From the NCBI GenBank assembly GCA_031316235.1, contig JALDRA010000001.1, forward strand, positions 120,001 to 152,000: a DNA stretch of 32,000 bases. Direction: 5' to 3'. Under the pieces are notes generated by a model. The model ran no database searches. It had not been told where the DNA came from and saw only the letters and a list, made by a program, of their open reading frames with translations. Within the stretch, counting starts at the first letter, position 1. Each line of letters begins with the position of its first letter. A program made the position numbers and the translations under genes. Below, piece by piece: positions 7,565 through 29,180 of this stretch. The stretch comes from Candidatus Scalindua sp. GTDB lineage: Bacteria > Planctomycetota > Brocadiia > Brocadiales > Scalinduaceae.

Positions 7565-7664
7565 TTATTCTACAATAGTTCTACACAAATAAATCCATCT
7601 CTTTAATTGCTTTAATCTAATAGGGTTGAGAGTTTAAATCAAGAGAAATATATGATTATTTTCC

Positions 7665-7693
7665 TTGACAATTTATAAACACCATGATAAAAG
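7665..7693 (+). promoter_or_regulatory. Candidate sigma70-type promoter upstream of hflX
   Basis: Perfect -35 TTGACA (7665-7670), a 17-nt spacer ending in TGA (extended -10-like), and -10 TAAAAG (7688-7693). It lies about 140 nt upstream of the hflX ATG. This is a motif match only. Confidence 0.3.
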
Positions 7694-7832
7694 CATCTTT
7701 GATCCAGGTGATAGTGTAACACATGAATATGTATTTTAACATACGAAAATTCATCCTTTTTTTGGAGAGAAACAGTTGGCTTCCAGAGAGATGGACTCTT
7801 CATGGAAGTGTGCGGAAAATAACTATTAACGT

Positions 7833-9122
7833 ATGGTAGAACCGAAAAGAACCGTCTTATCAGTGCGGGCAGAACGCGCTATTTTGCTCCATACAAGCCT
7901 CAAGAAAGGAAATGATTACAAAACACACCTCGCAGAACTGACAAACCTTGCAACTACAGCCGGCGCACACGTAGTGGACACCCTTATACAGAGACGATAC
8001 AGAATTGATCCCTATTATTACGTAGGAAAGGGAAAGGCAAAACAACTTGCCAGTCTGTGCAAGGATAAGAGCGCTGATGTCGTAATTTGTGATGATGATC
8101 TCGCCCCTGCACAAGTTCGGAATTTAGAAGAAATAATCGATACTAAAGTGATTGATAGAAGTGAGTTAATTCTCGATATCTTTGCAACCAGGGCAGAAAC
8201 CGCTCAGGCGAAACTGCAGGTGGAGCTTGCGCAGCTGGAATATACAAAACCCCGGTTAAAGCGGATGTGGACCCATCTTTCGCGTATCGAGGGAGGTATA
8301 GGAACACGAGGGCCCGGCGAAAAGCAGCTGGAGGTAGACCGCAGGATCATATCAAATAAAATCATTGCCTTGAAAAAAAAACTACGCCAGATTGAGCAGC
8401 GCAGGGCAAGCCAGGTAAAATCAAGAAAAGAGTTAACGAAGGTTTCTCTCGTGGGATACACAAATGCCGGCAAATCAACACTCATGAACAGATTAACCGA
8501 TGCCGGGGTATTTGTAGAAGATAAACTTTTTGCAACCCTTGATACCAAAACAAGCCTGTGTCAATTGGGTGATGGTAATACGGTTGTCTTAAGCGATACC
8601 GTGGGATTTATCAGGAAACTCCCTCACCATCTGATCGCTTCATTCCTTGCCACGCTTGAAGAGGTTCGATGGGCAGACTTTCTGTTGCATGTCGTTGACA
8701 TCAGTGCGCCTGACGCAATCGAGCAGGTTAACGCCGTTTATCAAGTCCTCAGGGAGCTTGGAAGTGACAAAAAACCGGTAATCACCATCCTTAACAAGGT
8801 CGATGCATCGAGAGACACATCAATAATCAGCTACTTTCAAAGCAAATACGAAAATACGGTAACTATTTCTGCACTCTCAGGAGAGGGACTGGAAAAACTC
8901 AAAAAAGAGATTGTCCGTTTTGCAAATAAGAAACGTAAGGAGATCAAACTGATCTGCAATGCCAGTAATGGAAAATTACAGGCCTACGTACACCGTAACT
9001 GCAGGGTGCTTAATCGAACATTTGAAGATTCATTCGTTCACTTTCATATCCTGATTGATGAAAAAAACCTTTCCGGTTTATACGAACTGGGAGGAAACGA
9101 TGTCTCTATCCAATACATGTGA
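7833..9122 (+). CDS. hflX: GTPase HflX
   Basis: 429 aa. It has the HflX N-terminal domain pattern and a coiled linker (AKLQVELAQLEY..RL). G-domain motifs are GYTNAGKSTLMNRLT, DTVGFI and NKVD. Confidence 0.9.
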   Translation: MVEPKRTVLSVRAERAILLHTSLKKGNDYKTHLAELTNLATTAGAHVVDTLIQRRYRIDPYYYVGKGKAKQLASLCKDKSADVVICDDDLAPAQVRNLEEIIDTKVIDRSELILDIFATRAETAQAKLQVELAQLEYTKPRLKRMWTHLSRIEGGIGTRGPGEKQLEVDRRIISNKIIALKKKLRQIEQRRASQVKSRKELTKVSLVGYTNAGKSTLMNRLTDAGVFVEDKLFATLDTKTSLCQLGDGNTVVLSDTVGFIRKLPHHLIASFLATLEEVRWADFLLHVVDISAPDAIEQVNAVYQVLRELGSDKKPVITILNKVDASRDTSIISYFQSKYENTVTISALSGEGLEKLKKEIVRFANKKRKEIKLICNASNGKLQAYVHRNCRVLNRTFEDSFVHFHILIDEKNLSGLYELGGNDVSIQYM

Positions 9123-9145
9123 GAGGTGCTCTCACAATAGCTGCT

Positions 9146-10024
9146 TCACGATTTCGTTCCTCCGAAATTCCTGCCCCTCCCCTTCCGCTTAACCCTCCCA
9201 ATGAAAAAAAGTGTCACCGTGACGACAAAGACCAGGGCACTGATATTCTGGGAGATTGTCAAACCGTCAAAGAGAGGCGGATTGTCATCCCTTAAGATCT
9301 CCATACAAAAACGCAATACAGAATACAACATGCAGAAGATAATCAATATTTCACCATCTCTTTTACGATATTTGAAAAAAGCATTTGCCATGAAAAAGAT
9401 CGCAAGATTACCCAGTGATGAATAAATCTGTGTTGGATGAACAGGCAGGGAATATCCATCTGAGATAGTTATCAACCCCTTTTCCAGATGGTCAACAAAT
9501 GCAGGACTTCCATCGATCATATTATTCACATCGACACTCTTCGGGAAACTGACAGCCCACCACAGATCAGGATCACAGATGTCACCCCAACAACATCCAT
9601 TAAGAAAACAGCCTATCCGACCAAAGAACAATCCCATTGCAATGGAAGGAGCAATTATGTCAAAAGTAAGCAACAACGGCAGTTTCCTTAACCTTACAAT
9701 AACTATTAAGGTAATTGTAGCAGCCAGCAATCCACCATAAAACACCAACCCGCCATGATAAATCTTCAAGATGTCCACCAAATTGTCTCTATACAGGTCA
9801 AAATTCTGCACTACATAAAACAATCTCCCCCCCGCAATACCAGCAAAAATCAAGTAGATTCCCAAATCTGAGATATGTTCCGGTTTAATCCCTTCCCGTT
9901 TTGCTCTCATGCGTGCAGCGTAAAGTGCAGCAAGAAACCCAATCATAAGCATAAAACCGTATGCGTATACGGGAATGGTCTTCCCAATAAAGGGTATCGG
10001 TATCTGAAACAGGGTCCTAAGCAT
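9146..10024 (-). CDS. lgt: Prolipoprotein diacylglyceryl transferase
   Basis: 292-aa polytopic membrane protein. It has YGFMLMIGF, GGRLFYV, GGLVFYGG, GR.GCF.NGCC.G and HPTQIYS motifs characteristic of Lgt. Confidence 0.9.
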   Translation of the reverse strand: MLRTLFQIPIPFIGKTIPVYAYGFMLMIGFLAALYAARMRAKREGIKPEHISDLGIYLIFAGIAGGRLFYVVQNFDLYRDNLVDILKIYHGGLVFYGGLLAATITLIVIVRLRKLPLLLTFDIIAPSIAMGLFFGRIGCFLNGCCWGDICDPDLWWAVSFPKSVDVNNMIDGSPAFVDHLEKGLITISDGYSLPVHPTQIYSSLGNLAIFFMANAFFKYRKRDGEILIIFCMLYSVLRFCMEILRDDNPPLFDGLTISQNISALVFVVTVTLFFIGRVKRKGRGRNFGGTKS

Positions 10025-10353
10025 GAGTACTCAGCTCCTTCACACGTACAAACGTACCGTTCCCGCACGAAAAGTGCTCAGAAAGGGGGTAGAGTCGATT
10101 CGCTGATTTTCTGATTTTACTTCGTAAGATAAAGATCATATCAATTTTTCTTTCATTTAAATTGACTTCATGTCTCCCTATTCCCCTACAGTGGCAGAAC
10201 AGAAACCCTGTGGTTAAACGAAAGCTGCCCGGATACCAGGCACGCTCTTATTTCGTAACCGGAACGTAATAAGGTACTTGAAGATCATGGAATTATTCCC
10301 ACAACGAAGGAGAAGGGCAGTTTTCGTTCAGCCACATATTGAGAGTCCCGATA

Positions 10354-11226
10354 TCACGTATCCAAAACAATATTATCTATCAACCTTGTACTCCCTATCC
10401 AAACTGCTACTGCTGCAACAGTCTTTCCCGTGATCTCAGTCTTCTCCCGTAATGAGTCGGAATCCACGAGAGAGATATAATCAATTCTCGCATCTTTTAC
10501 CGCATCAATAATATTTTCCATCTCATTGACGATTTTTCTCACTTCCCTCTCATTGGCCGCTACCAGGGACTTTGCCTTTAACAATGCCTCGTAAAGACAG
10601 CGTGCATCAAGACGTTCTTCCGCGCTTAAGTGCTTATTCCTGGAACTCAAGGCAAGGCCGTCTTTATCACGAACAATAGGAAGTACTTTGATATCCATAT
10701 CCATATTCAAGTCCTGAACCAGCCGCTTGATAATCACACTTTGCTGATAATCTTTTTGCCCAAAATAGGCCTTGTCTGGCTTGATTATGTTAAAAAGCTT
10801 GGTTACAATGGTAGTAACACCCTTGAAATGTCCGGGTCTCATCTTGCCGCAGAGTCTATTCGTAAGTTTTTCCTGTTCAACATATGTACAAAATCCTTCC
10901 GGATAGATCTCCTCCCTGCAAGGCGTAAAAACAATATCCACATCTTCATTTCGGCTAATTTCAATGTCGGTTTCCAACTGATGCGGATAGTTTGCCAGGT
11001 CATCTTCCCTCTCAAATTGAATTGGATTTACAAAGATGCTGACGATGAGCTTGTCGCACTCATTTCTTGCACTCCGCATAAGACTCAGGTGTCCTTCGTG
11101 CAGTGCACCCATCGTAGGCACAAAACCGATGGAACACCCCTCAGCTTTCACCGCATTTATCATTAATTGCATTGTATTAATGCTGCGAACTACATCCATA
11201 CACGAATACCAAACTGCAAAGTGCAC
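10354..11226 (-). CDS. panC: Pantoate--beta-alanine ligase
   Basis: It has GFVPTMGALHEGHLSLM (HxGH-type nucleotidyl-transferase motif), FVNPIQF and YFGQKDYQQ. The start is probably internal (M10, 11199), which gives the usual spacing to the PTMG motif. Confidence 0.9.
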   Translation of the reverse strand: MHFAVWYSCMDVVRSINTMQLMINAVKAEGCSIGFVPTMGALHEGHLSLMRSARNECDKLIVSIFVNPIQFEREDDLANYPHQLETDIEISRNEDVDIVFTPCREEIYPEGFCTYVEQEKLTNRLCGKMRPGHFKGVTTIVTKLFNIIKPDKAYFGQKDYQQSVIIKRLVQDLNMDMDIKVLPIVRDKDGLALSSRNKHLSAEERLDARCLYEALLKAKSLVAANEREVRKIVNEMENIIDAVKDARIDYISLVDSDSLREKTEITGKTVAAVAVWIGSTRLIDNIVLDT

Positions 11227-11304
11227 AAAACTTCGAAGCGTTAAGAGAATGCAAAAAAAAGATCATAACAGCTTTGTGTGAGTTATAAATTTAACACGAT
11301 TGTA

Positions 11305-11422
11305 TCTATACTAAAACCGATTTGGTTTTCGGTTTTACCGGAAATCAAATCTTGGTGAAGGTATACTCGCTCAATTTTGTCTCGGATTTTATCCGAAAAC
11401 CATTATAATAAGATGAGTATAC
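11305..11422 (+). repeat. Intergenic hairpin repeat, copy 3 (subfamily A, with an internal ~25-nt deletion)
   Basis: The sequence is TATACTAAAACCGATTTGGTTTTCGGTTTTACCGGAAATCAAATCTTGGTGAAGGTAT|ACTCGCTCAATTTTGTCTCGGATTTTATCCGAAAACC..GATGAGTATAC. It lacks the CCCCGGACAAAAAGCGCCGAGGACTT module present in copy 31184. Confidence 0.85.
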
Positions 11423-11507
11423 ATGGGAAGAAATTGTAAAAAGAGAATCGTATCAACAACACAATTTTTTGTCAAGCTTTCCCTAAGGGGGTATGCAGCG
11501 ATATGAA

Positions 11508-11652
11508 GATATACGAAAACCGATATGGTTTTAGATTTTTCTAAAAACTAAAGCCTGGTTGCTGATATCCCCGGACAGAAAGGCGCCGAGGACCAGTACC
11601 CGCTCCGTTTTTTCCCGGATTGTATCCGTAAACCATTAAAAGATGAGTATAC
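11508..11652 (+). repeat. Intergenic hairpin repeat, copy 4 (subfamily B)
   Basis: The sequence is GATATACGAAAACCGATATGGTTTTAGATTTTTCTAAAAACTAAAGCCTGGTTGCTGATATCCCCGGACAGAAAGGCGCCGAGGAC...CCCGGATTGTATCCGTAAACC..GATGAGTATAC. It lies about 85 nt from copy 3 in the same orientation. Confidence 0.85.
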
Positions 11653-11865
11653 GTTACATTAGGATTGTATGACATTATAGTCTTTATCAGCGTAATGTAC
11701 GGTTCGTAACAATTTTTTCTGTTATGTCTTACCTCCCCCTAAATCCCCATCCCAAGGGGGAATTCAATTGGTGGAGAGCCCAAATTTAATTACATATCCA
11801 TTTTAATTGAGTCGGTTATCCTGATCAAATGATAGCAGACAGATTTTCAGTAAACCCTGAATACC

Positions 11866-11906
11866 AAAAAAGGCGATTACCGTCTCGGAAACGACGGTAA
11901 TCGCCT
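11866..11906 (-). terminator. Rho-independent terminator downstream of the porin gene
   Basis: Perfect 13-bp stem: GGCGATTACCGTC (11872-11884) pairs with GACGGTAATCGCC (11893-11905), with an 8-nt loop. On the minus strand it is followed by a run of 6 T (plus-strand A run 11866-11871). It lies about 90 nt after the stop at 11994. Confidence 0.65.
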
Positions 11907-11993
11907 TGCAATTCACCATACCGATAAATCCAACCCTCTCGACAGGTATACAAACTGGTCTTCGTTCAGGCTGAATCAATCCTGTTAACCGTA

Positions 11994-13559
11994 CTAAAAA
12001 ACGTATTCAACACCTAATCCTGCAATATGTGCATCCTTATCTAACCCATCTGTATCAGCATGACCTCTTGCAGTACCAACGGAATCTTTGTTGAAATGGA
12101 TATACCGGTATTCAGGCCTGAGCAGGAGATTTTCGTGCAGCTTTATATTCAATGTTGCGGTAAAGTCCCACATTGTCTGGCCGAAAAATCTCAAACCGTC
12201 AGCATCATCAAAATACTCCCATCTTGTTGCAAGCTGATACTGGTCAGTAAAGTCGTAGATGGCATACGCTGCGGCTCCCCACCAATGGGCATTACTTTTA
12301 CCCACTACGGTAGAAGTGGTCACCTCCTCATGTGTATGTCCATCACCGGTGGAAACAACTTCTGTAGTATCTATAGTATTAGCCTTACCATCCTCCACCA
12401 TACCATAATCGACGTTCAGCATCAATTTCAGCTTGTCCACGGGCGTCTGCCATGAAACGATAAAATCTACCATCTGTGTAAGTCCGCCATTCGTATCTTC
12501 ACGCTGGTCGGTAGGTGCTCTCCCGGATCGCTGTTCCCAACCCTCGTTTCCATGGATCCCTCCTAAAGAGACGAACCAGTTTTCATTCGGCTCATAGGAA
12601 AGATACCACCCGAATGACTTTGACTCGTTGTTATCAATATTCGAATCCCACCCGTTTACGCCGTAAAGTTTCATGGTCATACCTTCCGGCATATAGTTTG
12701 ACAGATCCATGCTGATACCCGTATGGGTAAACGGTATCGCGTTATTATAGAGGATACCGTGCTGGTAATTGGGGTTACCGATGTTCTCTACCAGCTCCAG
12801 GCCTATCCAGGTGTACATCTTACCCATCGTAAAGGTGATACCTTTTCCGATTGGCGCTTCCCAGGAGATATTGGCAGCAGATACGGTAAAGATATCGTCC
12901 CTGTCTACATCATTTGTACCGTGCAGGCCTGATTTTTCACCATAAAAGGTAATCCTCTTTGCAAACTCACCCCAGTAGGTATGTACCTGCCATCCGATTG
13001 GGTGTTCGTCCGTAACCTGTTTGTCAAAAAAGAGTGCAAAGCTTTGGAACGTAAAGGAGTCATTCTCATTCTCGCCGATAAAGTTGACACCGCCGTCAGC
13101 ACCGGTGGTAAGAGAATTCTGCCTTTGCGCCGTATCACCATGAAGGTCAAAGTTATACATGTAGTTGACATCAACAAATCCGCTCAAGGTGACATCCTTG
13201 AAGGCACTCAGAAACGGAGACTCCTCAGCCCACTTCGCTATTTCTGATCGAATAGAAGAAGTCTGTGCACTCTTTGACTGCTCAATGATCTCACTCCTCA
13301 GCTCTTCTCTGAAACCAATAGATGCCTCCCGGGCAGCCCTCTGAGCATCAGCCCTTGTCTCGACCGCTACCTCCTTCAGCATCTCCTGCCTGATCTCTTC
13401 CAGTAATTCAGCCTTTAACTCTTCTTTCAACTCCGCCTTCATTCTTTCTCTGCTTGTCTCTTGTGCAAACGTTACGCTTCCGAGCGATAAAACCAGCACA
13501 GCAAATAACGGCAGGTACAACATAATTTTCCTCTTCATATAACACTCCTCCCCATTCAC
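11994..13559 (-). CDS. Outer-membrane beta-barrel porin-like protein with an N-terminal coiled-coil segment
   Basis: The signal peptide is KRKIMLYLPLFAVLVLSLGSVTFAQE (likely start M8, 13538). About 70 aa of Glu/Lys heptad-like sequence follows (ELKEELKAELLEEIRQEMLKE). After that come alternating aromatic/Gly-rich strands. The C-terminus is GLGVEYVF, with the terminal Phe typical of BAM-dependent barrels. The family assignment (OmpL-like/bbp2-type) is a guess. Confidence 0.6.
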   Translation of the reverse strand: MNGEECYMKRKIMLYLPLFAVLVLSLGSVTFAQETSRERMKAELKEELKAELLEEIRQEMLKEVAVETRADAQRAAREASIGFREELRSEIIEQSKSAQTSSIRSEIAKWAEESPFLSAFKDVTLSGFVDVNYMYNFDLHGDTAQRQNSLTTGADGGVNFIGENENDSFTFQSFALFFDKQVTDEHPIGWQVHTYWGEFAKRITFYGEKSGLHGTNDVDRDDIFTVSAANISWEAPIGKGITFTMGKMYTWIGLELVENIGNPNYQHGILYNNAIPFTHTGISMDLSNYMPEGMTMKLYGVNGWDSNIDNNESKSFGWYLSYEPNENWFVSLGGIHGNEGWEQRSGRAPTDQREDTNGGLTQMVDFIVSWQTPVDKLKLMLNVDYGMVEDGKANTIDTTEVVSTGDGHTHEEVTTSTVVGKSNAHWWGAAAYAIYDFTDQYQLATRWEYFDDADGLRFFGQTMWDFTATLNIKLHENLLLRPEYRYIHFNKDSVGTARGHADTDGLDKDAHIAGLGVEYVF

Positions 13560-17533: not shown

Positions 17534-18346
17534 TTATAAAAGATTTTGCAATGATTGTTTCAACTGTTTTGCCGTGGCTATCCTGTTTGAGGGATCTTCC
17601 TCCAGTGAAGCCATTATTACGTCCTCTAGTTTCTGTGGAATCAAGCGGTTTATATCTCTTGGTGGTATTTTTGAATCCTTCCATTTCTGTTTTGTCAAGG
17701 TTTCATACATGACTGCACCGGTAGAATAGATATCTGTCTTATCATCAAGGGACAAAAAGAATGAAATTGCTTCCAGGGGAATATTTTCTGGCTGATTTCT
17801 GAGATTATGCAGCAGGTCAATCTGCTCAGGGGAGGCATAATCCATGCTTATACCCTTTATTATGTCAGCTTTTCTTATGGCGAGTTCAAAATCAATCAAA
17901 TATGTTGTATTCGTATCCGGATCAATCATGATGTGACCAGGTTTAATATCGCAGTGAATAAGGTTTTTTGAGTGGAGATAATCCAGCGGATCACAGACGC
18001 TTATGTAACATTCTATGATATTTTTTATTTGACTGGAAAAATCTTCAGCCATTTTCTCTTGAAAATAACCAACGAGGTCGATGTCACTCGTATGATCAAG
18101 AACGATAAAATACTGGGTAAGGACTACCTCTTTATCCTTATACATGGTGCCTTGCCCATAATCGTAAACCTTGGGTATCTGTTTCTGGTCCAACTGATGC
18201 AAAATACGGAATTCACCATCAAATGACATGTGCGGACAATATTTTATACCTAGACTCGTCTCGTTTTCCAGTACGGCATAATTTGACTTATGCAGATTTG
18301 CAATCGTCTTAAATGATTTAAAGGTGTAGTCCTTGATCCTGTACAT
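17534..18346 (-). CDS. Hanks-type Ser/Thr protein-kinase-like protein with atypical catalytic motifs
   Basis: 270 aa, kinase domain only. The catalytic loop is HCDIKPGH (17933-17956) versus HRDxKxxN. DFE (17885-17893) replaces DFG, and SPE replaces APE. DIYSTGAVMYE and the subdomain XI Arg (PSNR) are present. There is no glycine in the expected GxGxxG region (KTIANLHKSNYAV). The candidate VAIK Lys is in LGIKY. Confidence 0.75.
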   Translation of the reverse strand: MYRIKDYTFKSFKTIANLHKSNYAVLENETSLGIKYCPHMSFDGEFRILHQLDQKQIPKVYDYGQGTMYKDKEVVLTQYFIVLDHTSDIDLVGYFQEKMAEDFSSQIKNIIECYISVCDPLDYLHSKNLIHCDIKPGHIMIDPDTNTTYLIDFELAIRKADIIKGISMDYASPEQIDLLHNLRNQPENIPLEAISFFLSLDDKTDIYSTGAVMYETLTKQKWKDSKIPPRDINRLIPQKLEDVIMASLEEDPSNRIATAKQLKQSLQNLL

Positions 18347-18777: not shown

Positions 18778-20343
18778 GTGAGGTATTTTCTTTTAAAAAA
18801 TAATAAGTATAAGGGTGCAATGAAATGGATTAATCTGGCTTATTTTATCGTGTGTGTTTCGTGTCTTGTGTATTTTGGCTCAAAGGTTGTATGCGCTGGT
18901 GATCCAAGCGGCGAAAATACCTTTTCTGATAGTATTGAAGGACTTAAAGTCTCCATTAACATGACATGGACTCTCGTTGCTGCATTCCTGGTGTTTTCCA
19001 TGCAGGCAGGTTTTGCATTCCTGGGCGGTTTCTTACAGTCTAAAAACATGTTAGGCTATATGGCACACTGTTTCGTCGATGGAACTATCGGCGCGCTCGT
19101 TTTCTGGATGTTTGGTTTTGCATTGATGTTTGGCGGATCAGGACTCCACTCGGGTCTTGAAAGTGGAAACTCGATTATAGGATACAGCGGGTTCTTTCTT
19201 GCTGGTGAGGCTTATGACGTTCAGTCTATCATGTTCTGGCTATTCCAGATGGTATTCTGCACAAAGGCAGTCACCATTATTGCCGGAGCTGTGGCTGAAC
19301 GTATGAAATTCGCCCCGTATTTAATCTACAGCTTTGTTGTATGCGGATTTATCTATCCTGTTTACGGGCACTGGGTATGGGGTGGTGGCTGGCTAGGAAA
19401 TCTCCCCATTGGCTCAGGCGTCATGGACTTTGCAGGATCAGCAGTAGTGCACACTATTGGTGGTATGCTTGCCCTGGTCGGGGCGTTTTTCCTGGGACCA
19501 CGATCTAAGAAATTCAACCCGGACGGGTCATCAAACGCCATCCCCGGTCACGACCTTACCCTGGTAGTTGTTGGTACACTGCTTCTGGCATTTGGCTGGT
19601 TCGGTTTCAATGCGGGCAGCACATGTGCGGCAACTGACTTAAGGATCTCCGTCGTAGCCGTAAATACCTTTATCGCCGCAGCTGCCGGAGCCACTATCGT
19701 AATCTTTATCTCATATGCTTACTTTGGTTTCAGCGATATCGGTCTTGCATGTAACGGTGCACTTGGCGGGTTGGTAGCAATAACCGGTCCTTGCGCCTTT
19801 GTCGCCCCCTGGGCTGCTGTAGTGATTGGTTTGCTTGCCGGACTGGTAATGTGGGGAACCGTTATCTTTGTTGAATCAAAGCTCAAAATAGACGATCCCC
19901 TTGGTGCAGTCGCCGTGCACGGTGCAAACGGCATATGGGGCATGCTTGCGCTTGGAATATTTGCTGATGGTACATACGGAGGCGTAAACGGCCTCATAAC
20001 CGGTTCCGGTGCGCAGCTTCTTGCCCAGGCAATCGGTGTTGCTGTTGCAATGGGATGGGCACTCGGTATCGGTAGTATCTTATTTTTTGTACTAAAAGTA
20101 ACGATGGGATTACGTGTTTCCGAATTGATTGAACACGAAGGCGTGGACATCCACCTTCATGGATCACCTTGTTACCCTGCCCAGGAAGAGATCACTTCTC
20201 AGGTAGGCCCTGTAATTGAGCAGGAGATAGAGACCAGAGAAACTGCATTACTGGAAGAATCTCTGGCCAAGGATGCGAGCAGGGAAAAAATCTACTCTGA
20301 AAAACTCGGAAGATGGATTTACGCCAAACTGAAGCAAGAGTAG
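18778..20343 (+). CDS. amt: Ammonium transporter (Amt family) with a long acidic C-terminal tail
   Basis: 521 aa. It has the Amt signatures DFAGSAVVHTIGG, GWFGFNAGS and AVHGANGIWG, plus an N-terminal signal-like segment. The GTG start at 18778 sits 4 nt after GGAGGAGGGG. The alternative start is ATG 18820 (MKWINLAYF). About 63 aa follow the EGVDIHLHG motif, versus about 20 aa in the paralog at 21645..23069. Confidence 0.9.
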   Translation: MRYFLLKNNKYKGAMKWINLAYFIVCVSCLVYFGSKVVCAGDPSGENTFSDSIEGLKVSINMTWTLVAAFLVFSMQAGFAFLGGFLQSKNMLGYMAHCFVDGTIGALVFWMFGFALMFGGSGLHSGLESGNSIIGYSGFFLAGEAYDVQSIMFWLFQMVFCTKAVTIIAGAVAERMKFAPYLIYSFVVCGFIYPVYGHWVWGGGWLGNLPIGSGVMDFAGSAVVHTIGGMLALVGAFFLGPRSKKFNPDGSSNAIPGHDLTLVVVGTLLLAFGWFGFNAGSTCAATDLRISVVAVNTFIAAAAGATIVIFISYAYFGFSDIGLACNGALGGLVAITGPCAFVAPWAAVVIGLLAGLVMWGTVIFVESKLKIDDPLGAVAVHGANGIWGMLALGIFADGTYGGVNGLITGSGAQLLAQAIGVAVAMGWALGIGSILFFVLKVTMGLRVSELIEHEGVDIHLHGSPCYPAQEEITSQVGPVIEQEIETRETALLEESLAKDASREKIYSEKLGRWIYAKLKQE

Positions 20344-20773: not shown

Positions 20774-20795
20774 TGAACGGTACCTGATTTTAAAT

Positions 20796-20935
20796 GTATA
20801 CTCATCTCATACTGGATTTCGGATACAATCCGGGATACAATTGAGCGAGTAAAGTCCTCGACGCTTTTTGCCCGGGGATACCTTCACCAATATTTGATTT
20901 CCGGTAAAACCGAAAACCAAATCGGTTTTAGTTAT
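20796..20935 (-). repeat. Intergenic hairpin repeat, copy 5 (subfamily A, full length)
   Basis: The sequence is GTATACTCATCTCATACTGGATTTCGGATACAATCCGGGATACAATTGAGCGAGTAAAGTCCTCGACGCTTTTTGCCCGGGGATACCTTCACCAATATTTGATTTCCGGTAAAACCGAAAACCAAATCGGTTTTAGTTAT. It is nearly identical to the reverse complement of copy 31184-31326. It starts 22 nt after the glnK stop. Confidence 0.9.
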
Positions 20936-21585
20936 TACTGCTTACTATCCTCCTTCCGCTTTGCGGGCAGGCGGATAGTAAGCAAAAAACAGGATCCACC
21001 GGTTATTCCTGTTCCGCTCCTGCAGGAAGAGAAAACTAGCTGACAACCAGCCTATCTGCACTCTGTACCCTAAACTTAAAAAGTGCCATGAGTCTATGAA
21101 TCTAACCTGTAGAGGGTGCCCAGTGAGACAGAAGGTGATATAGAACCTTAAATGGCTGCAACTATCTCGAAGCACAAAGATAAAATAAATAGCACCTCTC
21201 CTCTTCCCACTTTACCATCAAACCTCTTTGGAAAACGAAATCATCAGCTCATACTAAGGTCGCTACTTGAAAAGAGAGAAATGTAAATTTACCTTTAAGC
21301 AAGCAACGAAGATAACAAAATAGTCTTATTCAGAAATAAATAATGTAAGTTGTTATAAATAATCGACTTAACTCTCTATGGATGGAACAGGCATGATACA
21401 GTAAACCAATCTGTTATCTGGCAGTAACCAGCCTACACAAAATGGTCTGATGGCATAACAGCCATTACTACATACAGTTAGCTGTCACAATAGAACAGGC
21501 TGGCCCCGCGAAAGTAAGCTATCTGTTGCCGGCTTATTTCTGCCAGTTGTCATTGTCTTACATGGATAGACAGTCAGCAAAAGGC

Positions 21586-21622
21586 AAAAAAAAACCCCGC
21601 CTCGAAATCCGGCGGGGTTTTT
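21586..21622 (-). terminator. Rho-independent (potentially bidirectional) terminator after the second amt gene
   Basis: GC-rich 7-bp stem: CCCCGCC (21595-21601) pairs with GGCGGGG (21611-21617). It is flanked by a 9-A run on the plus strand (a 9-T tail for the minus-strand transcript) and a 5-T run on the other side. It lies 23 nt after the stop at 21645. Confidence 0.7.
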
Positions 21623-21644
21623 CGTGAGAATTTTTTATTCACAT

Positions 21645-23069
21645 CTATGCAACAGCACCGTGTGAATTAGCGCCTCCAGCAGGTTCCTGAATTGGATAAC
21701 ATGCTGTGCCATGAATGTTGATGTCCAACCCCTCTTTTTCAACATCCTCAGACACCCTCATCTTTGAATTGCCTTTACTTCCACGCAGCATACTGAAAAT
21801 TACAAAACTTAAACCGCCTGCCCAGGCAAATGCTACACCACAGGCAATTAATTGTGAGACTAACTGACCATAGTGACCGGTTATTACACCCTGAACACCA
21901 CCATATGAACCATCGGCAAAAATACCCAATGCAATCAGACCCCAAAAACCATTAGCACCATGCACCGAGCATGCACCCAGCGGATCATCAACTCTGAATT
22001 TATTTGCAATAATCCAGACTGAAATCAGATAGAGAATAGAACCGATAAACCCTATCAGAACTGCTCCCCACGGTGCAACATAGGCACAAGGTGCGGAAAT
22101 AGCAACCAGGCCGGCCAGGCACCCGTTACACGCTTCACCAACATCGGTGTGCCCTGAAATCAGGTAAGTAAGAAACAGTACCGTAACAGCCCCTACTGAA
22201 CCCGCAAGCAATGTGTTTGCAGCAATTACGGACGCTCTGAGGTCACCAGATGCCAAAGTGCTTCCTGCATCATACCCTAACCATCCAAACATCAGGAGTA
22301 TCGTACCGATAATCATGTAGCCAACATTATGACCTTCTATGGTATTCGAAGAACCATCATCGTTGTACTTCCCTTTTCTTGCTCCCAGGAAAGCGGCACC
22401 CACAAAACCGATTGTACCACCGATTGCATGTACTACACCTGAACCTGCAAAATCTCGAACACCCACACCATACGGAAGATTCCATAGCCAGCCTTCTCCC
22501 CATACCCAATGCCCATAGATGGGATAGATAAAAATATACACGAAGAAAAGAAGCAGCACATAGGAACAAAGTTTCATTCTCTCGGCAACAGCCCCGGCAA
22601 TAATGCTGCCTATGAAGGTTGCAACAACGGCCATGAACAGAAACAACAGTATTGTTCTGACGTCATATGCATCTCCCAGTAACATGAAACCGCTGGTCCC
22701 CAGATATTCATTTCCTTTCCCGATATGCGCTCCTAAGAATTCAAATCCTCCAAACATGAGCCCGAACCCTACAAACCAGTATATGAGTACACCAAGGGTG
22801 GTGGCAATGAAACAATGGGTCATATAATTTAATGTATTCTTTGCGGGAATTAACCCGCCTAACAATACAAAACCCACCTGCATGAATAAAATAGTAAATC
22901 CGGTCAGCAGGATCCAAGAAAAACTGTTAGATAAATTAATCCCTCTGAGATCTAACGCAAAAGTTTTATCTCCGGTCGGATCTCCCGCTTCAGAAATACC
23001 AAACAACAGAAAAACAGTAATGCTGGCAACAAATAAATACAACCACAAATTTTTCATTTTAAACACCAT
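21645..23069 (-). CDS. amt: Ammonium transporter (Amt family), second paralog
   Basis: 474 aa. It has DFAGSGVVHAIGG, GWLGYDAGS and SVHGANGFWG. The ATG at 23069 is preceded by AAGGAGGAG at 9-nt spacing. The N-terminal signal-like segment is followed by AGDPTGDKTF, versus AGDPSGENTF in the other paralog. Confidence 0.9.
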   Translation of the reverse strand: MVFKMKNLWLYLFVASITVFLLFGISEAGDPTGDKTFALDLRGINLSNSFSWILLTGFTILFMQVGFVLLGGLIPAKNTLNYMTHCFIATTLGVLIYWFVGFGLMFGGFEFLGAHIGKGNEYLGTSGFMLLGDAYDVRTILLFLFMAVVATFIGSIIAGAVAERMKLCSYVLLLFFVYIFIYPIYGHWVWGEGWLWNLPYGVGVRDFAGSGVVHAIGGTIGFVGAAFLGARKGKYNDDGSSNTIEGHNVGYMIIGTILLMFGWLGYDAGSTLASGDLRASVIAANTLLAGSVGAVTVLFLTYLISGHTDVGEACNGCLAGLVAISAPCAYVAPWGAVLIGFIGSILYLISVWIIANKFRVDDPLGACSVHGANGFWGLIALGIFADGSYGGVQGVITGHYGQLVSQLIACGVAFAWAGGLSFVIFSMLRGSKGNSKMRVSEDVEKEGLDINIHGTACYPIQEPAGGANSHGAVA

Positions 23070-23653: not shown

Positions 23654-23797
23654 ATTCGGTCAAAAAATGAAACTCATCCTTGCTTTTAAATTTTTTTGTT
23701 TCATAATAGGGAGCTTTACCTGTATTACTATCATCAAGAAAAAACAAGGAGTTTCACGGCTTCATATCGAATAAAGCCTGGGAAGAGAAACGAGCAC

Positions 23798-26533
23798 ATG
23801 ACTTTTAGTACTTTAGGAAAAATACATAGTGATATAGACAAAGTCAAGCTAATTCTCCGAAAAAAAGACAAAACTTTCTTCAATAAGTACTGTCATCTAT
23901 TTGAGCAATTAAAACAATCACGGCAAAGATTTATCGATACCATAAATCTCACTATGGAAGACGGCAGGACAAAACCCATAAAACTCTTTCTGGTTCAACA
24001 CAACCTTGCCTTCGGGCCAGGCCATGGTGTCCTGCAATTTATCAAAGAAATACACCTCCCAAAGGGTGTGCTGAGGTCTCCATCCCACAATACCATGGAC
24101 ATGGTTGAGAAATGGATTCTTGAAGAGGTGGAAGCTGCGGCTACCAGTACAAGCCTGCGCCACGTGCTCCATAATATAAAGCTTGGCGGAGCATGCTGCG
24201 CTGTTGCCCTGCTGGAACTTAAAAGGATTGATGATCATATTGAAATCGTTCCTATTAATCTGACAGATATTGAGGAAGCACGGCTCTCCAGAGAAATCGG
24301 GCACCGTCTTGTGAAATATCATATTATGGGAACTGAGAGTTTATGGCTTGAGCCTGATAACCTTACAACAAACGAACAAATCATACAATGGGTAGAGGAT
24401 GAAGCCTTAAAAACTCTCTCATTAAGACAACTCTTTACACCAAGAGACAAAAAACTGTTTGAAACACTGAACAGGATTCACCACCATGCAGGAACGATAA
24501 ACAGAAATTCAGTTGATCCTGATAAAACAAAAAGAATACTAGAAACACCTTATCACGATGAAGCCCAGGACTGGTTAAAGGAATGGAAATCAACAAGACG
24601 GGGAGAAACTGCAACAGAAGAGCTGCTCTCGAGGACTTCAAATGCTGGCAAACACTACAGGCGTCAAATACTGAGAATTTCCCTGAAGTACCGGATCCTC
24701 CCCTCTTTGGCAAAAAAAATCCTGCCTGTCCAGCGTCTTCTTACCGTAATGCACCTCCCCATTAAAGACTATAAACCCAACGGTCAGATAGCCATCCTTG
24801 ACACGGGAATTGCCCCCGCCATTGTCGAACAGCATATAACAAAACTACCGAACCTCCATGATGAAGATATTGTAGTCATAAGCGTATTAGCAAAGCGTCT
24901 TGGGGGAAGTTCTCCAGAGATGATCGTTCAGCTTTGCCGGATATACATTGAAGCCGCTTATAATCTGGGAGCAAAAGTCGTACTCCTTTGCAACACAATG
25001 GATGCTAATGCACGGGAAACTCTGGCGAAAGAGTTCAACATACCAATTCTTGGCCCCATAAGACCTGCAATACAGGCAGTAAAAAAATATCTGGAACCGA
25101 AGAATTCCGGGAGACATACTATTGGAGTTATTGCTACCAGGGCAACGATTGCCGCTGGCGCATATGAACGTGAAACCGGTAAATCCATGCCTGCCGCGAG
25201 AATACTTAATGTCATAGCACCGTTGTTAGCAACCCTGATTGATATGATTGCAACCGGCGTAAGCGGGTCAGAGATCACCCACCAGAGAAATGTGGCAATA
25301 CTCGAAGCAAATCTTCTTCCGCTTACAAAAAAAAACATCGATATTCTCGTCCTGGGATGTACCCATTACAGTGTATTCGAGCAGGCTATACACGATTTCT
25401 GGATTCGCTCTACCGGAAAAGATATTGTTATTGTAAACTCTTCCAGAGAACTTCCAAAATTTACTGCAGCCTATTTGAAAGAAAACCGTATATTATCAAC
25501 CAGGAGTAATGCCCATAAAGGCACCCTGTCGCACATAGCCAGCCAGGAATATGCTGCTGAATTTAAACGGGGAGTCATGAATATCACCGGTCGCAATGTC
25601 AAGGTAATCCCGATGGACATTGGTAAAGTCGTCGGAAGATTGAGCGAGAAAGAGAGATTCTTTCAGGAAACGGTATACAAGGAGAGCAGGGAAGATGTTA
25701 ATCTCCGGGCTTTCATTATCAACTCGAATCTTTCCGCTGAAGCCAAAGTGGCCATTGCAGACACATTATATGGGGCAGGGAATTTGAATAAAAACCACTC
25801 TCATCGCGAAATACTGACAATTGAGCTAACTGACGAGCTCATGAGAGAACTGGTATTGCTCGCCATCCGGGATACCGGCATGCTGAGGATTCTATCTTCC
25901 GCCGTACATTCTGATCTTGAAGTAGTAGAAGCGGAAAACAGGAAAGGTGAACACAACATCTTTGTAAGAAATACTACCCAAAACTTCTTTATTATTGGAG
26001 AAAATAATCACTTTACTCGAGTCTTACTGCCATCAGAAAAAAACTTTTTTTCCGGTTTGCTGTATTTTAAAACGGCAGCAGGTAAATTCATACATGTGGA
26101 CCAACTGGACCTGTCGTTTTTCCCAAATACTCTCTTTCAGCCCCGTCATCACAGAGAATTAAATGAATTTAATGAAGCGCTCAAAGAAATCAAAAAAATC
26201 AAGCAGGAGATGGAATGGAATAAGGAGTACCCCAGGCACTCAAAAGATTCTGCCTTGAAAGTTAAGAACTATCTCGATAGGATCGGCTTTCAAGGTGTTT
26301 CGTTGGAAACAAAAAAAACTGAGGATATTATTCATACGTATGTTATTCTTATCCTTATGGATACCGAAGTTATTGTCGACATTTCCGCAAGCCAGTATGA
26401 AGTATGGAAAGGTGCTGGAGCTGTCTCCTGCATGAGAGACCTCGGGGTTGTCGTTATCCCCCGTTCTGAGGTTGAAAACATGCAGAAAAGTGACCCTGAA
26501 TCTCTTTTTTTCTATCACGGCAAACATCCGTAA
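23798..26533 (+). CDS. Large multidomain protein: Glu/Leu/Phe/Val-dehydrogenase N-terminal (substrate-binding) domain lacking the catalytic Lys, plus a glutamate-racemase (Asp/Glu racemase superfamily)-like domain, plus about 330 aa of unknown C-terminal region
   Basis: Residue numbers follow the tracked ORF (start 23696). Residues 76-236 (RFIDTINLTMEDGRTKPIKLFLVQHNLAFGPGHGVLQF...EVEAAATSTSLRHVLHNIKLGGACCAVAL...LTDIEEARLSREIG...EPDNLTTNEQIIQWVEDE) align colinearly with the GDH pattern (V..PV.MDDG....F.GYRVQHN.A.GP.KGG.R.H...EV.ALA..MT.K.A...LP.GG.KGG......LS..ELE.LSR.......PD.G T....M.W). Residues 364-600 (IAILDTGIAP...VVLLCNTMDANA...IPILGPIRPA...IGVIATRATI...ILVLGCTHYSVF) follow the MurI order with both Cys motifs (Cys codons 24989-24991 and 25358-25360). 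The start is placed at ATG 23798 (MTFSTLGK). The tracked TTG at 23696 is the alternative. Confidence 0.7.
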   Translation: MTFSTLGKIHSDIDKVKLILRKKDKTFFNKYCHLFEQLKQSRQRFIDTINLTMEDGRTKPIKLFLVQHNLAFGPGHGVLQFIKEIHLPKGVLRSPSHNTMDMVEKWILEEVEAAATSTSLRHVLHNIKLGGACCAVALLELKRIDDHIEIVPINLTDIEEARLSREIGHRLVKYHIMGTESLWLEPDNLTTNEQIIQWVEDEALKTLSLRQLFTPRDKKLFETLNRIHHHAGTINRNSVDPDKTKRILETPYHDEAQDWLKEWKSTRRGETATEELLSRTSNAGKHYRRQILRISLKYRILPSLAKKILPVQRLLTVMHLPIKDYKPNGQIAILDTGIAPAIVEQHITKLPNLHDEDIVVISVLAKRLGGSSPEMIVQLCRIYIEAAYNLGAKVVLLCNTMDANARETLAKEFNIPILGPIRPAIQAVKKYLEPKNSGRHTIGVIATRATIAAGAYERETGKSMPAARILNVIAPLLATLIDMIATGVSGSEITHQRNVAILEANLLPLTKKNIDILVLGCTHYSVFEQAIHDFWIRSTGKDIVIVNSSRELPKFTAAYLKENRILSTRSNAHKGTLSHIASQEYAAEFKRGVMNITGRNVKVIPMDIGKVVGRLSEKERFFQETVYKESREDVNLRAFIINSNLSAEAKVAIADTLYGAGNLNKNHSHREILTIELTDELMRELVLLAIRDTGMLRILSSAVHSDLEVVEAENRKGEHNIFVRNTTQNFFIIGENNHFTRVLLPSEKNFFSGLLYFKTAAGKFIHVDQLDLSFFPNTLFQPRHHRELNEFNEALKEIKKIKQEMEWNKEYPRHSKDSALKVKNYLDRIGFQGVSLETKKTEDIIHTYVILILMDTEVIVDISASQYEVWKGAGAVSCMRDLGVVVIPRSEVENMQKSDPESLFFYHGKHP

Positions 26534-26655: not shown

Positions 26656-26910
26656 ATGCATAAAAAAGGTAAAACAGTAAGAAAATGTTATGATTGTATC
26701 CTTAATCTGGGAGACCATTGTGCTGTTTATGAAGAGCCACATGATAGATGGCATCACTCTAAGTGTTCAAGTTATAATGACAAAGAGCTGTATAACGAGT
26801 ATCTTGAAAATCAAAAAAAACATCCCGTAGACCAGGCCAAAGAGCTAAGAAAGGAAAAGGCAAAAAAAGTACATACCGCAGAACACCGACAGGGGAGAAA
26901 GAGCCCTTAG
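26656..26910 (+). CDS. Small Cys/His-rich basic protein (hypothetical, possible metal-binding)
   Basis: 84 aa from ATG 26656, preceded by GAGAGGGG 7 nt upstream. The sequence is MHKKGKTVRKCYDCILNLGDHCAVYEEPHDRWHHSKCSSYN... followed by a Lys/Glu-rich tail. It has a CxxC...HC...H...HH..C pattern. It lies 122 nt downstream of the fusion gene on the same strand. I recognise no family. Confidence 0.45.
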   Translation: MHKKGKTVRKCYDCILNLGDHCAVYEEPHDRWHHSKCSSYNDKELYNEYLENQKKHPVDQAKELRKEKAKKVHTAEHRQGRKSP

Positions 26911-27157: not shown

Positions 27158-28495
27158 TCAATTGTGTGCCGTTTCAAGTTTCTTTAAGACGGTATCTTTT
27201 ACCAGCCCATAGTCCGGAGGAAGTTCTACCGGCAGATTTACATATTGTGGTTGAACTTCCTCCAATTTGTTCTCATGGTACCTGACCTTAAAATCGGTAA
27301 ATTTCAACCCATGAGCCGTAGAGATAATCACAATTCGCTCATCCTTCCTGATCTGTTTTCTTTTAACCAGCTTAAATAACGCTGCCAATGCAACACCCGT
27401 ATGAGGGCAGTTGAAAAGCCCCGTAGTATCAGCCAGTGCTGCAGCATTCGCAAGTTCATCCTCTGTTGCCTGCTCTACAATCCCGTCAAACAGTTTCAAA
27501 ATCTTAATCGCCTTGTTGATACTGATGGGATTACCTATTTGAATAGCACTCGCAAGTGTTTTTTTCGCCTTTATCGGATGATACTCCTTAAAACCCTTCT
27601 GATAACACCGATACAGGGGATTAGCCCTTGAGGCTTGAACACACACTATTCTGGGAAGTTTCGTAATCATACCCAGGTCCCTCATCAGGAGAAATCCTTT
27701 ACCAAGTGCACTGATATTTCCCAGATTTCCACCCGGTATTATAATAACGTCAGGTACTTCCCAGTCAAACTGCTGGACTAATTCAATGCTGATGGTCTTC
27801 TGCCCCTCAATTCGAAGAGAATTCATCGAGTTCGCAAGATAAATAATATTTTCTGCACAGATCTTACGCACTATTTCCATGCAACCATCAAAATCGGTAT
27901 CTAATGAAAGCGTCAGGGCTCCATTCGCTATCGGCTGAATCAACTGTGCCGTCGAAACCTTGTCTTTAGGCAGGAATACTATGGCAGGTATACCCGCGGC
28001 AGCACAATATGCAGCAAGAGCTGCAGAAGTATCACCTGTCGAGGCACATGCAACACCCCGTATCTCCTTTCCCTCAGAAATCATCTGCTTCACCATGGAA
28101 ACAAGGACTGTCATGCCAAGGTCCTTAAATGAACCGGTATGAGCATTCCCGCACTGCTTAATCCATAAGTTATCTACCCCGATAATATTACCAAGACGTT
28201 CTGCCCAGAAGAGATTGCTGGCCCCTTCATAAAGAGAAACAATGTTCGTATCCTCCACATTTGGACAAACCACCTCCTTCTTCCCCCAGACAGCGCTGCC
28301 GTAGGGCCATCTCGTCCTTCTGTAGCGGTCGTCAAACAGCTTTTTCCACGATTCGGGTTTACGTCGTTTCAGCTTCTCAATATCGTGCTGGACCTCAAGT
28401 AACCCCCCACACTTTCTACAGGTGTAGATAATCTCGTTCAGCTCATACTTCTCATCACACCCTGACGAGCACCGAAACCATGCCTTTTGCCCCAT
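27158..28495 (-). CDS. thrC: Threonine synthase (long form with an N-terminal zinc-ribbon)
   Basis: 445 aa. It has an N-terminal C..C...C..C ribbon (CSSGCDEK...TCRKCGG). The PLP-Lys motif is [10 protein letters not shown], followed by [10 protein letters not shown] and PGGNLGN, as in ThrC. Confidence 0.9.
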
Positions 28496-28598: not shown

Positions 28599-29180
28599 TT
28601 ATTCAAGTAAAAGTAGACCGAAATATTTAACATATTCATTTTTATGTTCAAGGAATTTTATCTCAAAACCATTATTCCGTACAGTACCAAATACATCAAT
28701 GCCACATGCCTCCATTGACGGCCTTGCATCTGTTGGTAAAGTACACGATTCCCCGATAGTGCATTCTGTACAAAGCGGGCATGGACCGGCACCTAAGGCA
28801 AAAGCCTTATAGAACCCTGCAAAATTTGCCTTGTGCTCAACAGCAAGAAGCATATCCTTGAAATCTCTTCCGGGCGGCTGTCCTTCAATGAGAAGAGCGC
28901 TCTTATAGGAGTTCAATAGCTCGCGGGTCTCTTTATAGGAAGGTGTATATGGAGGGCAGGTCTTAAACTTACCAAATTTTGAACAACCGAAACGGCATTT
29001 CAACTGAACCCAGGGCTCAACTATTACGCTCTCCGTAGTGATCAACCGTGAAGCCGTTGCCCCCAGCTTTACCAGCTCACTACATAACGGTTCCACCCTG
29101 TCATCATTTACACAATACATAGACTGATCACCTGAAAAACATAGAGTAACAAGGTAAAATAGTATGGGTAACCGCGTCAA
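28599..29180 (-). CDS. DUF2284-like predicted metal-binding protein
   Basis: The Cys pattern LKCRFGCSKFGKFKTCPPYTP ... GAGPCPLCTEC is what I recall for the DUF2284 family. The start is likely M21 (29120, MYCVNDD), because the first 20 codons look non-native. Confidence 0.6.
   Translation of the reverse strand: MTRLPILFYLVTLCFSGDQSMYCVNDDRVEPLCSELVKLGATASRLITTESVIVEPWVQLKCRFGCSKFGKFKTCPPYTPSYKETRELLNSYKSALLIEGQPPGRDFKDMLLAVEHKANFAGFYKAFALGAGPCPLCTECTIGESCTLPTDARPSMEACGIDVFGTVRNNGFEIKFLEHKNEYVKYFGLLLLE

Follow-up and report, generated by a model that had tools for sequence, protein, structure and literature searches.

The window discussed here is the whole stretch of 32,000 nucleotides running from position 120,001 to position 152,000 on the forward strand of contig JALDRA010000001.1, in a genome assembly of Candidatus Scalindua sp. 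(NCBI GenBank GCA_031316235.1; Planctomycetota, Brocadiales, Scalinduaceae). At positions 23798 to 26533 of the window lies a gene whose predicted product joins the remains of a glutamate dehydrogenase (GDH) to a racemase domain of the glutamate racemase (MurI) type, followed by a C-terminal third. The longest open reading frame (ORF) of this fusion gene extends from a TTG codon at 23696 to 26533; counted from the ATG at 23798 it encodes 911 amino acids (aa), and the product is 100% identical to a Candidatus Scalindua sp. protein recorded at NCBI (4.15-Mb contig). The fusion protein would be cytoplasmic; of the four or five modules that make up its 911 aa, one is the MurI domain. These modules, and the nearest neighbour of the gene, are as follows.

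23798..26533, + strand: complete coding sequence of the pseudo-GDH / MurI-type racemase fusion, 911 aa plus stop (ORF listing)
23798..24418, + strand: relic of GDH domain I, first part, aa 1-207 (family profile, Foldseek)
24419..24697, + strand: helical segment, aa 208-300, located where the Rossmann NAD(P) domain was deleted (hhalign, MAFFT)
24698..24772, + strand: helix, aa 301-325 (LPSLAKKILPVQRLLTVM...), equivalent of the C-terminal return helix of GDH (alignment to the Brocadiaceae homologue P0109)
24773..25567, + strand: MurI-type Asp/Glu racemase domain, aa 326-590 (Pfam, TIGR00067, PDB, Foldseek)
25568..25921, + strand: mostly helical core domain of the C-terminal third, aa 591-708 (shared by all Scalinduaceae homologues)
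25922..26530, + strand: lineage-specific C-terminal extension, aa 709-911, mixed beta/alpha (close clade of the window only)
21645..23069, - strand: divergently transcribed ammonium transporter gene (amt), neighbour of the fusion (ORF translation)

A preliminary description of the locus had recognized domain I of GDH in about 160 residues at the N-terminus. The domain call was right, its extent too short: the GDH-derived part amounts to about 230 aa, and what had been taken for a linker of some 125 aa turns out, by profile, hhalign and MAFFT comparisons, to be made of the rest of domain I, a helical insert and the return helix. With the single window sequence the Pfam model ELFV_dehydrog_N scores 21.6 bits, under its cut-off of 25.3. 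A profile built from 12 family members retrieved the GDH of P. furiosus from the PDB with an E-value of 5.8e-9; the match consists of a block at aa 27-81 and, colinear with it, another at aa 146-207, which is the GDH block 'L..E..RL.R...PxPD..TN.QI..W..DE'; Foldseek, run with the AF2 model, matched GDH structures at about E 1e-7, and the profile of the N-domain of the family gave about 100 bits on the Brocadiaceae proteins considered below. The sequence motifs lie where they had been placed (GPGHGV at 24014-24031, with its His codon at 24023-24025; GGACCA at 24185-24202; DTGIAP at 24800-24817; LLCNT at 24983-24997; LGCTHY at 25352-25369). Within aa 1-207 we thus find GPGHG (aa 73-77), GGACCA (aa 130-135) and an EPD motif that retains Asp187.

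In hexameric GDHs domain I is the portion of the protein that forms the core of the hexamer, and the C-terminal helix returns to it and packs on it. This helix can still be traced in the fusion protein: aa 301-325 (PSLAKKILPVQRLL) align with 'SLAGDVVAIRRIV' of P0109, both with hhalign and with MAFFT, and the equivalent segment of another Brocadiaceae protein, P0281 ('agdvvaikriis'), aligns to the C-terminal helix of the GDH of T. maritima (2tmg). Between domain I and this helix, aa 208-300 are all-helical in the AF2 model, with low pLDDT, and have no Pfam match; part of the segment is homologous to an insert specific to Brocadiaceae that precedes the Rossmann domain and displays a PY..W..R.G motif (hhalign against P0109). 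The Rossmann NAD(P) domain itself, already reported as absent, is indeed gone: PF00208 finds no match in the window protein, the domain is missing in all Scalinduaceae members, and in the MAFFT alignment it appears to have been cleanly excised (about residues 337-500 of P0109). As the return helix was kept while domain II is missing, the relic makes sense only as what an internal deletion left of a complete GDH, and not as a captured, isolated N-domain.

The residues that made domain I a catalyst have been lost as well, including the catalytic lysine, and they have been replaced in a variety of ways. Among 41 homologues the equivalent of K89 (position 76) is Q in 35, H in 4 and K in 2, the window having H76; the equivalent of K113 (position 121) is Y, F, H or R across the family, with R121 in the window; the equivalent of the catalytic K125 (position 133) is S in 33, C in 7, as in the window (C133), and G in one. 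That positions binding glutamate in a true GDH vary among orthologues argues against a conserved GDH-type pocket for glutamate or 2-oxoglutarate. Asp187 (equivalent of Asp165, the Asp of PxPD) is, for its part, invariant across the family. Compared with hexameric GDHs (PF02812 with PF00208; PDB 1gtm, 2tmg), the relic therefore shares the sequence and fold of domain I, the PxPD aspartate and the return helix, while it lacks the Rossmann domain and the three lysines. As judged from its sequence, it does no redox chemistry: deprived of both its Rossmann domain and its catalytic lysine, it cannot be a dehydrogenase. Yet its pairwise identity within the family is 0.71, as against 0.69 for the racemase domain, and a relic as conserved as the racemase next to it points to selection for something other than catalysis.

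A precedent exists for a polypeptide of the GDH family that has been retained for assembly or regulation instead of catalysis. In the GdhA/GdhB hetero-hexamer of Thermus thermophilus (PDB 3aoe), GdhA is a catalytically poor GDH paralogue that serves as a regulatory subunit; both chains turned up as separate sequences in our GDH searches. GdhA, however, is a full-length, two-domain GDH that is not fused to anything, whereas the Scalindua relic is part of a fusion.

The second recognizable module had been described as a MurI-like racemase fold, and this identification is well founded. Pfam PF01177 (Asp_Glu_race) recognizes it with 36.2 bits for a gathering cut-off of 31, and a search of the PDB matched the glutamate racemase 2dwu with E 1e-16; in every comparison authentic glutamate racemases came out on top, with aspartate and other racemases scoring far lower. 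The AF2 model of the fusion protein (pLDDT 70.8), submitted to Foldseek, superimposes on 2dwu_A (B. anthracis RacE1) with E 3.4e-13, a target TM of 0.86 and a root-mean-square deviation of 3.1, showing the two-lobed alpha/beta fold of MurI. Both cysteine motifs are intact, as had been noticed. In the 41 homologues, which are only about 50-60% identical, D335, C398-N-T, T447, T450, D482 and C521-T-H523 are all invariant. The DSGxGG loop has diverged to DTGIAP: Asp335 is kept in 41/41, Ser has become Thr336 in 38/41, and GG has become AP. These replacements, like that of Glu by Asp482, are conservative in nature, yet they are fixed and set the domain apart from the usual motif. Canonical MurI/RacE proteins (TIGR00067; PDB 2dwu, 1zuw, 2jfn) share with this domain their fold, the CNT and GCTHY cysteine motifs and the Asp and His partners; they are about 270 aa long, whereas the Scalindua version is a module of a 911-aa protein with changes at the DSGxGG, PYG and Glu153 positions. 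Regulation of a glutamate racemase is documented in E. coli, where the effector is UDP-MurNAc-L-Ala (title of PDB entry 2jfn). Other MurI fusions came up in the same search, namely MurI-Ham1 (P0237) and MurI-DUF1934 (P0252). Like the Scalindua protein they associate MurI with an unrelated module, but their partners differ and neither involves a domain derived from GDH. We also observed, in a scan of genome contigs (loci L039-L084), that the free-standing MurIs closest to the Scalindua racemase domain belong overwhelmingly to Patescibacteria/CPR, not to Planctomycetota.

The origin of this assembly becomes easier to understand when the relatives of the protein in Brocadiaceae (Kuenenia, Brocadia and other Brocadiaceae; 911-920 aa) are considered. 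P0109, scanned against Pfam, comprises ELFV_dehydrog_N (41.8 bits) and ELFV_dehydrog (116 bits), both above threshold, and Asp_Glu_race, that is, a complete GDH and a MurI; precomputed Pfam assignments give all three domains in P0277, P0278, P0279 and P0281, and no Asp_Glu_race for P0280 and P0282. The racemase motifs are nevertheless conserved in all seven aligned Brocadiaceae proteins, in canonical form (DSGQGG, PFG, Glu). On the GDH side, TTLK and PGPD are present in 7/7, GPPKGG in 6/7 (P0278 has Thr for Lys) and GFGxxG in 6/7 (GFDAIG in P0282), and the catalytic lysine of GGGK is replaced by Met in every one of the seven. The Scalindua family aligns with P0109 over 528 columns (hhalign probability 99.8, E 1.4e-27), and the MAFFT alignment is colinear. 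The two forms have in common N-terminal helices, a domain I with an anammox-specific insert between GPxKGG and GGGx, the return helix and a MurI-type domain placed C-terminally; they differ in that the Brocadiaceae fusion has kept its whole Rossmann domain and two of the three lysines (GPPKGG, TTLK), both lost in Scalindua, and has canonical MurI motifs and none of the Scalindua C-terminal domains.

One of these relatives already has a place in the literature. Cluster P0282 contains the K. stuttgartiensis proteins QII10822.1 and SOH03588.1, named 'putative glutamate dehydrogenase' or 'strongly similar to glutamate dehydrogenase'. The gene (locus L009, 10001-12751, 916 aa) is found on a contig in the order sigma54 regulator, histidine kinase, B12/radical-SAM protein, argG, CBS, fusion and a xanthine-dehydrogenase pair, which matches the published order KSMBR1_1077 atoC_2, 1082 miaB_2, 1083 argG, 1084, 1085 gdh_1 (kuste3038) and 1091/1092 xdhBA (supplement of PMC7438415). 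Synteny, annotation and accession all identify the K. stuttgartiensis fusion as KSMBR1_1085 / kuste3038, 'gdh_1'. This gene has been counted among the two low-affinity ammonium-assimilation GDH genes of Kuenenia (PMC7438415), with an expression of about 31-39 RPKM (reads per kilobase per million mapped reads) that is not differential under ammonium limitation (supplement of the same article). With Met for its catalytic lysine, it is probably not a functional GDH. The same genome holds a separate murI (KSMBR1_1293 / kustd1506; same supplement), in agreement with the weak match of the MurI domain of the Kuenenia fusion to E. coli MurI (E 5e-7 over 70 aa), so that the fusion is an extra paralogue there. 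To go by the alignments, then, the Scalindua protein is a Rossmann-less derivative of a fusion of the gdh_1 type, to which C-terminal domains have been added.

The architecture associating GDH with MurI is restricted to the anammox order. A word-indexed search yielded 108 clusters of homologues, and every name given was Scalindua, Scalinduaceae or Planctomycetes; an exhaustive HMMER scan of 1.84 billion representatives recovered two family clusters, the distant relative P0109 (169 bits) and some fragments, below which came ordinary MurIs at 115 bits or less. Among GTDB species representatives about 26 genomes carry the Scalindua type and 5 the Brocadiaceae type, the remaining matches being plain MurIs, mostly of Patescibacteria. 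Every Scalindua-type genome sampled has the fusion, in a single copy. The cluster of P0109 carries a 'Patescibacteria' label that we did not retain; it probably reflects a mis-binned contig, its near relatives being Kuenenia, Brocadia and Brocadiaceae. The preliminary description held the architecture to be undescribed. This is so in the sense that the scan of representatives found it in anammox bacteria alone, and that literature searches for a GDH-racemase fusion, or for the fusion gene in anammox bacteria, returned no description; database names, however, had partly anticipated it. JGI and UniProt call several members of the family 'glutamate racemase', some records name the Scalindua form after its dehydrogenase domain, the JGI name of the Kuenenia counterpart is 'glutamate dehydrogenase/leucine dehydrogenase/glutamate racemase', and the literature knows the gene as 'gdh_1'.

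The last third of the protein, said to resemble nothing familiar, has kept this status after a much broader exploration. Its final 320 residues or so have no Pfam or NCBIfam match, be it on aa 585-708 or on aa 709-911; phmmer and profile searches against the PDB gave no relative, and a word-indexed search of 5.8 billion proteins gave no homologue. Residues 600-911, modelled on their own with AF2 (pLDDT 63) and compared with the PDB by Foldseek, gave a best E of 0.13 and no fold match. Two layers can be distinguished. Residues 591-708 are present in all Scalinduaceae members, and residues 709-911 are found in the window protein and in P0002-P0006 only; with tblastn, this extension was retrieved at loci L001/L011 and L006 only, and in shortened form at the syntenic locus L025. 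There (Ca. Scalindua sp. SCAELEC01, 9902-12235), a fusion 75% identical to that of the window terminates some 50 aa after the start of the extension, and a small Cys/His ORF comes immediately after it, which implies that the extension is dispensable or was recently lost. Several candidate relationships were considered: a similarity of the C-terminal third to FIH/JmjC proteins was marginal (E 0.03), vanished with a profile search and was rejected; a transglutaminase- or papain-like reading of the H-[ST]-Y...D-I-x-A-S motif of the extension found no support and is at most a lead; and the homology of the Scalindua C-terminal core with the tail of the Brocadiaceae proteins was not established (hhalign E 0.015, probability 3%).

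Taken together, these features incline us to the view, which we hold with moderate confidence, that the protein would be an active two-thiol, cofactor-independent racemase of the MurI type carrying a non-catalytic GDH scaffold, an accessory paralogue that descends from the GDH-MurI fusion of anammox bacteria. The scenario would start with a fusion specific to the anammox order, still complete in Kuenenia and Brocadia, with domain I, Rossmann domain and return helix. In Scalinduaceae the Rossmann domain would then have been excised and all three GDH lysines lost, leaving the core of domain I and the return helix. Going by the invariant residues, the MurI domain would interconvert L- and D-glutamate or a close analogue, with Cys398 and Cys521 acting as an opposing acid/base pair, helped by Asp335 and His523. 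The GDH relic would probably play the role of an oligomerization and/or regulatory scaffold, as suggested by the survival of the hexamer-building core while the residues of the pocket drift. Finally, by analogy with Kuenenia, the Scalindua protein is probably an accessory paralogue and not the housekeeping enzyme of peptidoglycan synthesis.

It may even be that the relic assembles as the core of a GDH hexamer does, alone or with true GDH subunits, so that the racemase would be displayed on a GDH-like particle; we regard this as a doubtful conjecture, with the odds set heavily against it. Were it correct, anammox bacteria would possess a specific machine coupling L-glutamate derived from ammonium and 2-oxoglutarate directly to D-glutamate or, in the reverse direction, a route leading from D-glutamate (of peptidoglycan or of marine dissolved organic matter) to L-glutamate and to NH4+ as a substrate of anammox; the relic could alternatively serve as an allosteric switch. 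The use of a pseudo-dehydrogenase as quaternary scaffold for a racemase would represent an enzyme organization of a new kind.

Two families of anammox bacteria preserve two stages of decay of the same enzyme, first the change of the catalytic lysine to Met, then the excision of the Rossmann domain, and the remaining core, as conserved as the neighbouring racemase, offers a clear case, found in nature, of a pseudoenzyme domain maintained for a purpose other than catalysis. For physiology, a second protein of the glutamate-racemase type, conserved throughout the anammox order, would imply a function related to D-glutamate beyond the supply of cell-wall precursors in bacteria that are responsible for much of the nitrogen lost from the oceans. 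The practical consequence bears on the annotation of 'GDH' genes in anammox genomes: one of the two Kuenenia GDH genes that enter models of nitrogen assimilation (PMC7438415) is a GDH-MurI fusion without catalytic lysine.

Several observations weigh against an accessory glutamate racemase on a GDH scaffold. The racemase domain falls short of the equivalog cut-off of TIGR00067 (91.1 bits over aa 331-566, for 146.65), and the PRK00865 models score far below theirs. The shell of its active site displays further fixed changes (PYG to LGG, GT to AT at Thr447, and Asp482 in 41/41 at the position of Glu153), and such substitutions could mean another substrate. The profile of the Scalindua MurI domain gives about 115 bits on free-standing MurIs, against 48-62 bits on the MurI domain of the Brocadiaceae fusion, so that simple orthology of the MurI domain is not proven. 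Above all, if Scalindua has no second, canonical murI, the fusion is the housekeeping enzyme; tblastn of canonical MurIs against the 84 loci with their flanks found the fusion's own domain alone. The protein would then be the sole glutamate racemase of Scalindua, making D-glutamate for peptidoglycan, its extra domains being structural baggage. Anammox peptidoglycan does contain D-glutamate (PMC4432595), and this reading would fit a single-copy gene found in every Scalindua-type genome sampled, with invariant catalytic residues, a MurI domain nearer to free-standing MurIs than that of the Kuenenia fusion is, and members already named 'glutamate racemase'. We nonetheless deem it unlikely, if by no means far-fetched: the homologous fusion of Kuenenia coexists with a separate murI, the family remains under the TIGR00067 cut-off, and the domains other than the racemase are conserved to the same degree as it is, something one would not expect of baggage. 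That same low score and the altered DSGxGG loop might be taken to mean that neither module is catalytic and that the protein acts by binding or regulating, for instance as a MurI-like modulator of gyrase. MurI does moonlight as a gyrase inhibitor in other bacteria. Complete invariance of both cysteines, of the aspartate and of the histidine is hard to explain without catalysis, however, and makes a double pseudoenzyme very improbable.

The gene neighbourhood bears on two further explanations. As had been pointed out, the fusion gene of the window diverges from amt and lies 3 kb from an amt-glnK pair, whence the proposal of a protein that senses glutamate or 2-oxoglutarate through the relic and ties the neighbouring ammonium transporters to nitrogen status. 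The divergent arrangement is common to the window, L001/L011, L006 and L025 only, while L013 has amt-glnK within 10 kb; these are the only loci with an amt gene within 10 kb of the fusion. In Brocadiaceae, two of the three distinct neighbourhoods examined place an NtrB/NtrC-like pair, a CADD-like protein, a Glu_synthase-domain protein and RidA upstream of the fusion, the third, that of K. stuttgartiensis, having argG and CBS. The inactive regulatory GDH subunit known in Thermus would also fit such a role, yet amt is absent near about 20 other Scalindua loci and all the Brocadiaceae loci examined, which undercuts the inference of a role in nitrogen status; the drift of positions 76, 121 and 133 speaks against sensing by the relic, and the expression of Kuenenia gdh_1 does not change under ammonium limitation. 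We consider such a sensor improbable. Hints of amino-acid or nitrogen metabolism do recur near the fusion; no linkage is conserved family-wide. At the 20 or so other Scalindua loci, the gene has a divergent GNAT gene upstream, often accompanied by a KamA-family radical-SAM gene, and LexA, a small ORF and DinB downstream. This context, which may be an amino-acid-modifying neighbourhood in most marine Scalindua, would suit a racemase or epimerase that has shifted to an N-acyl or gamma-linked glutamate, or to some other acidic amino acid, as would the fixed changes in the binding shell (S to T, GG to AP, PYG to LGG, G to A before Thr447, E to D at 482), all canonical in the Brocadiaceae form. But bona fide glutamate racemases remain the best matches, the GNAT/KamA neighbourhood is absent from the clade of the window and may reflect mere synteny of close relatives, and a shift of substrate appears to us distinctly unlikely.

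Some details of these neighbourhoods deserve mention. At locus L003, taken as an example, the divergent GNAT acetyltransferase (8937-9800, - strand) has 287 aa and scores 24.3 bits on Acetyltransf_1, with equivalents in about 20 Scalindua loci; the neighbouring gene (7625-8749, - strand) encodes a KamA-family radical-SAM amino-acid 2,3-aminomutase, which scores equally on the arginine, lysine and glutamate aminomutase models. An MR_MLE neighbour in loci of the short type had been entertained as an L-Ala-D/L-Glu epimerase; it proved to be menC (o-succinylbenzoate synthase, 347 bits), and the idea was dropped. When the whole window was scanned with Rfam nothing matched, and no riboswitch was detected in the 729-bp gap upstream of the fusion.

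On the other side of the gene, about 120 bp past its stop and on the same strand, a Cys/His-rich ORF of 84 aa (26656-26910, + strand; MHKKGKTVRKCYDC...) is 84-91% identical in the syntenic loci L001 and L025. Other Scalindua loci lack it, and neither Pfam nor NCBIfam recognizes it. In the ammonium transporter just upstream of glnK (18778-20343, + strand; 521 aa) the Pfam Amt domain extends as far as residue 464, and the 55 or so residues beyond it form a charged C-terminal tail (…EEITSQVGPVIEQEIETRETALLEESLAKD…). The 870 bp or so (20774-21644) that separate glnK from the second amt contain no ORF of at least 80 aa on the coding strands. Beside amt-glnK a 270-aa gene with a Ser/Thr protein-kinase domain (17534-18346, - strand) has homologues that adjoin amt in L001, L006, L013 and L025, and it may be associated with the ammonium-transporter cluster; in L001 and L006 this cluster is arranged differently, with extra amt, dCache and kinase genes. 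Further downstream in the window, a gene for a DUF2284 predicted metal-binding protein (28599-29180, - strand) adjoins a threonine-synthase-like PALP gene (27158-28495, - strand), and this pair, together with lpxD, is syntenic in L001 and L025.

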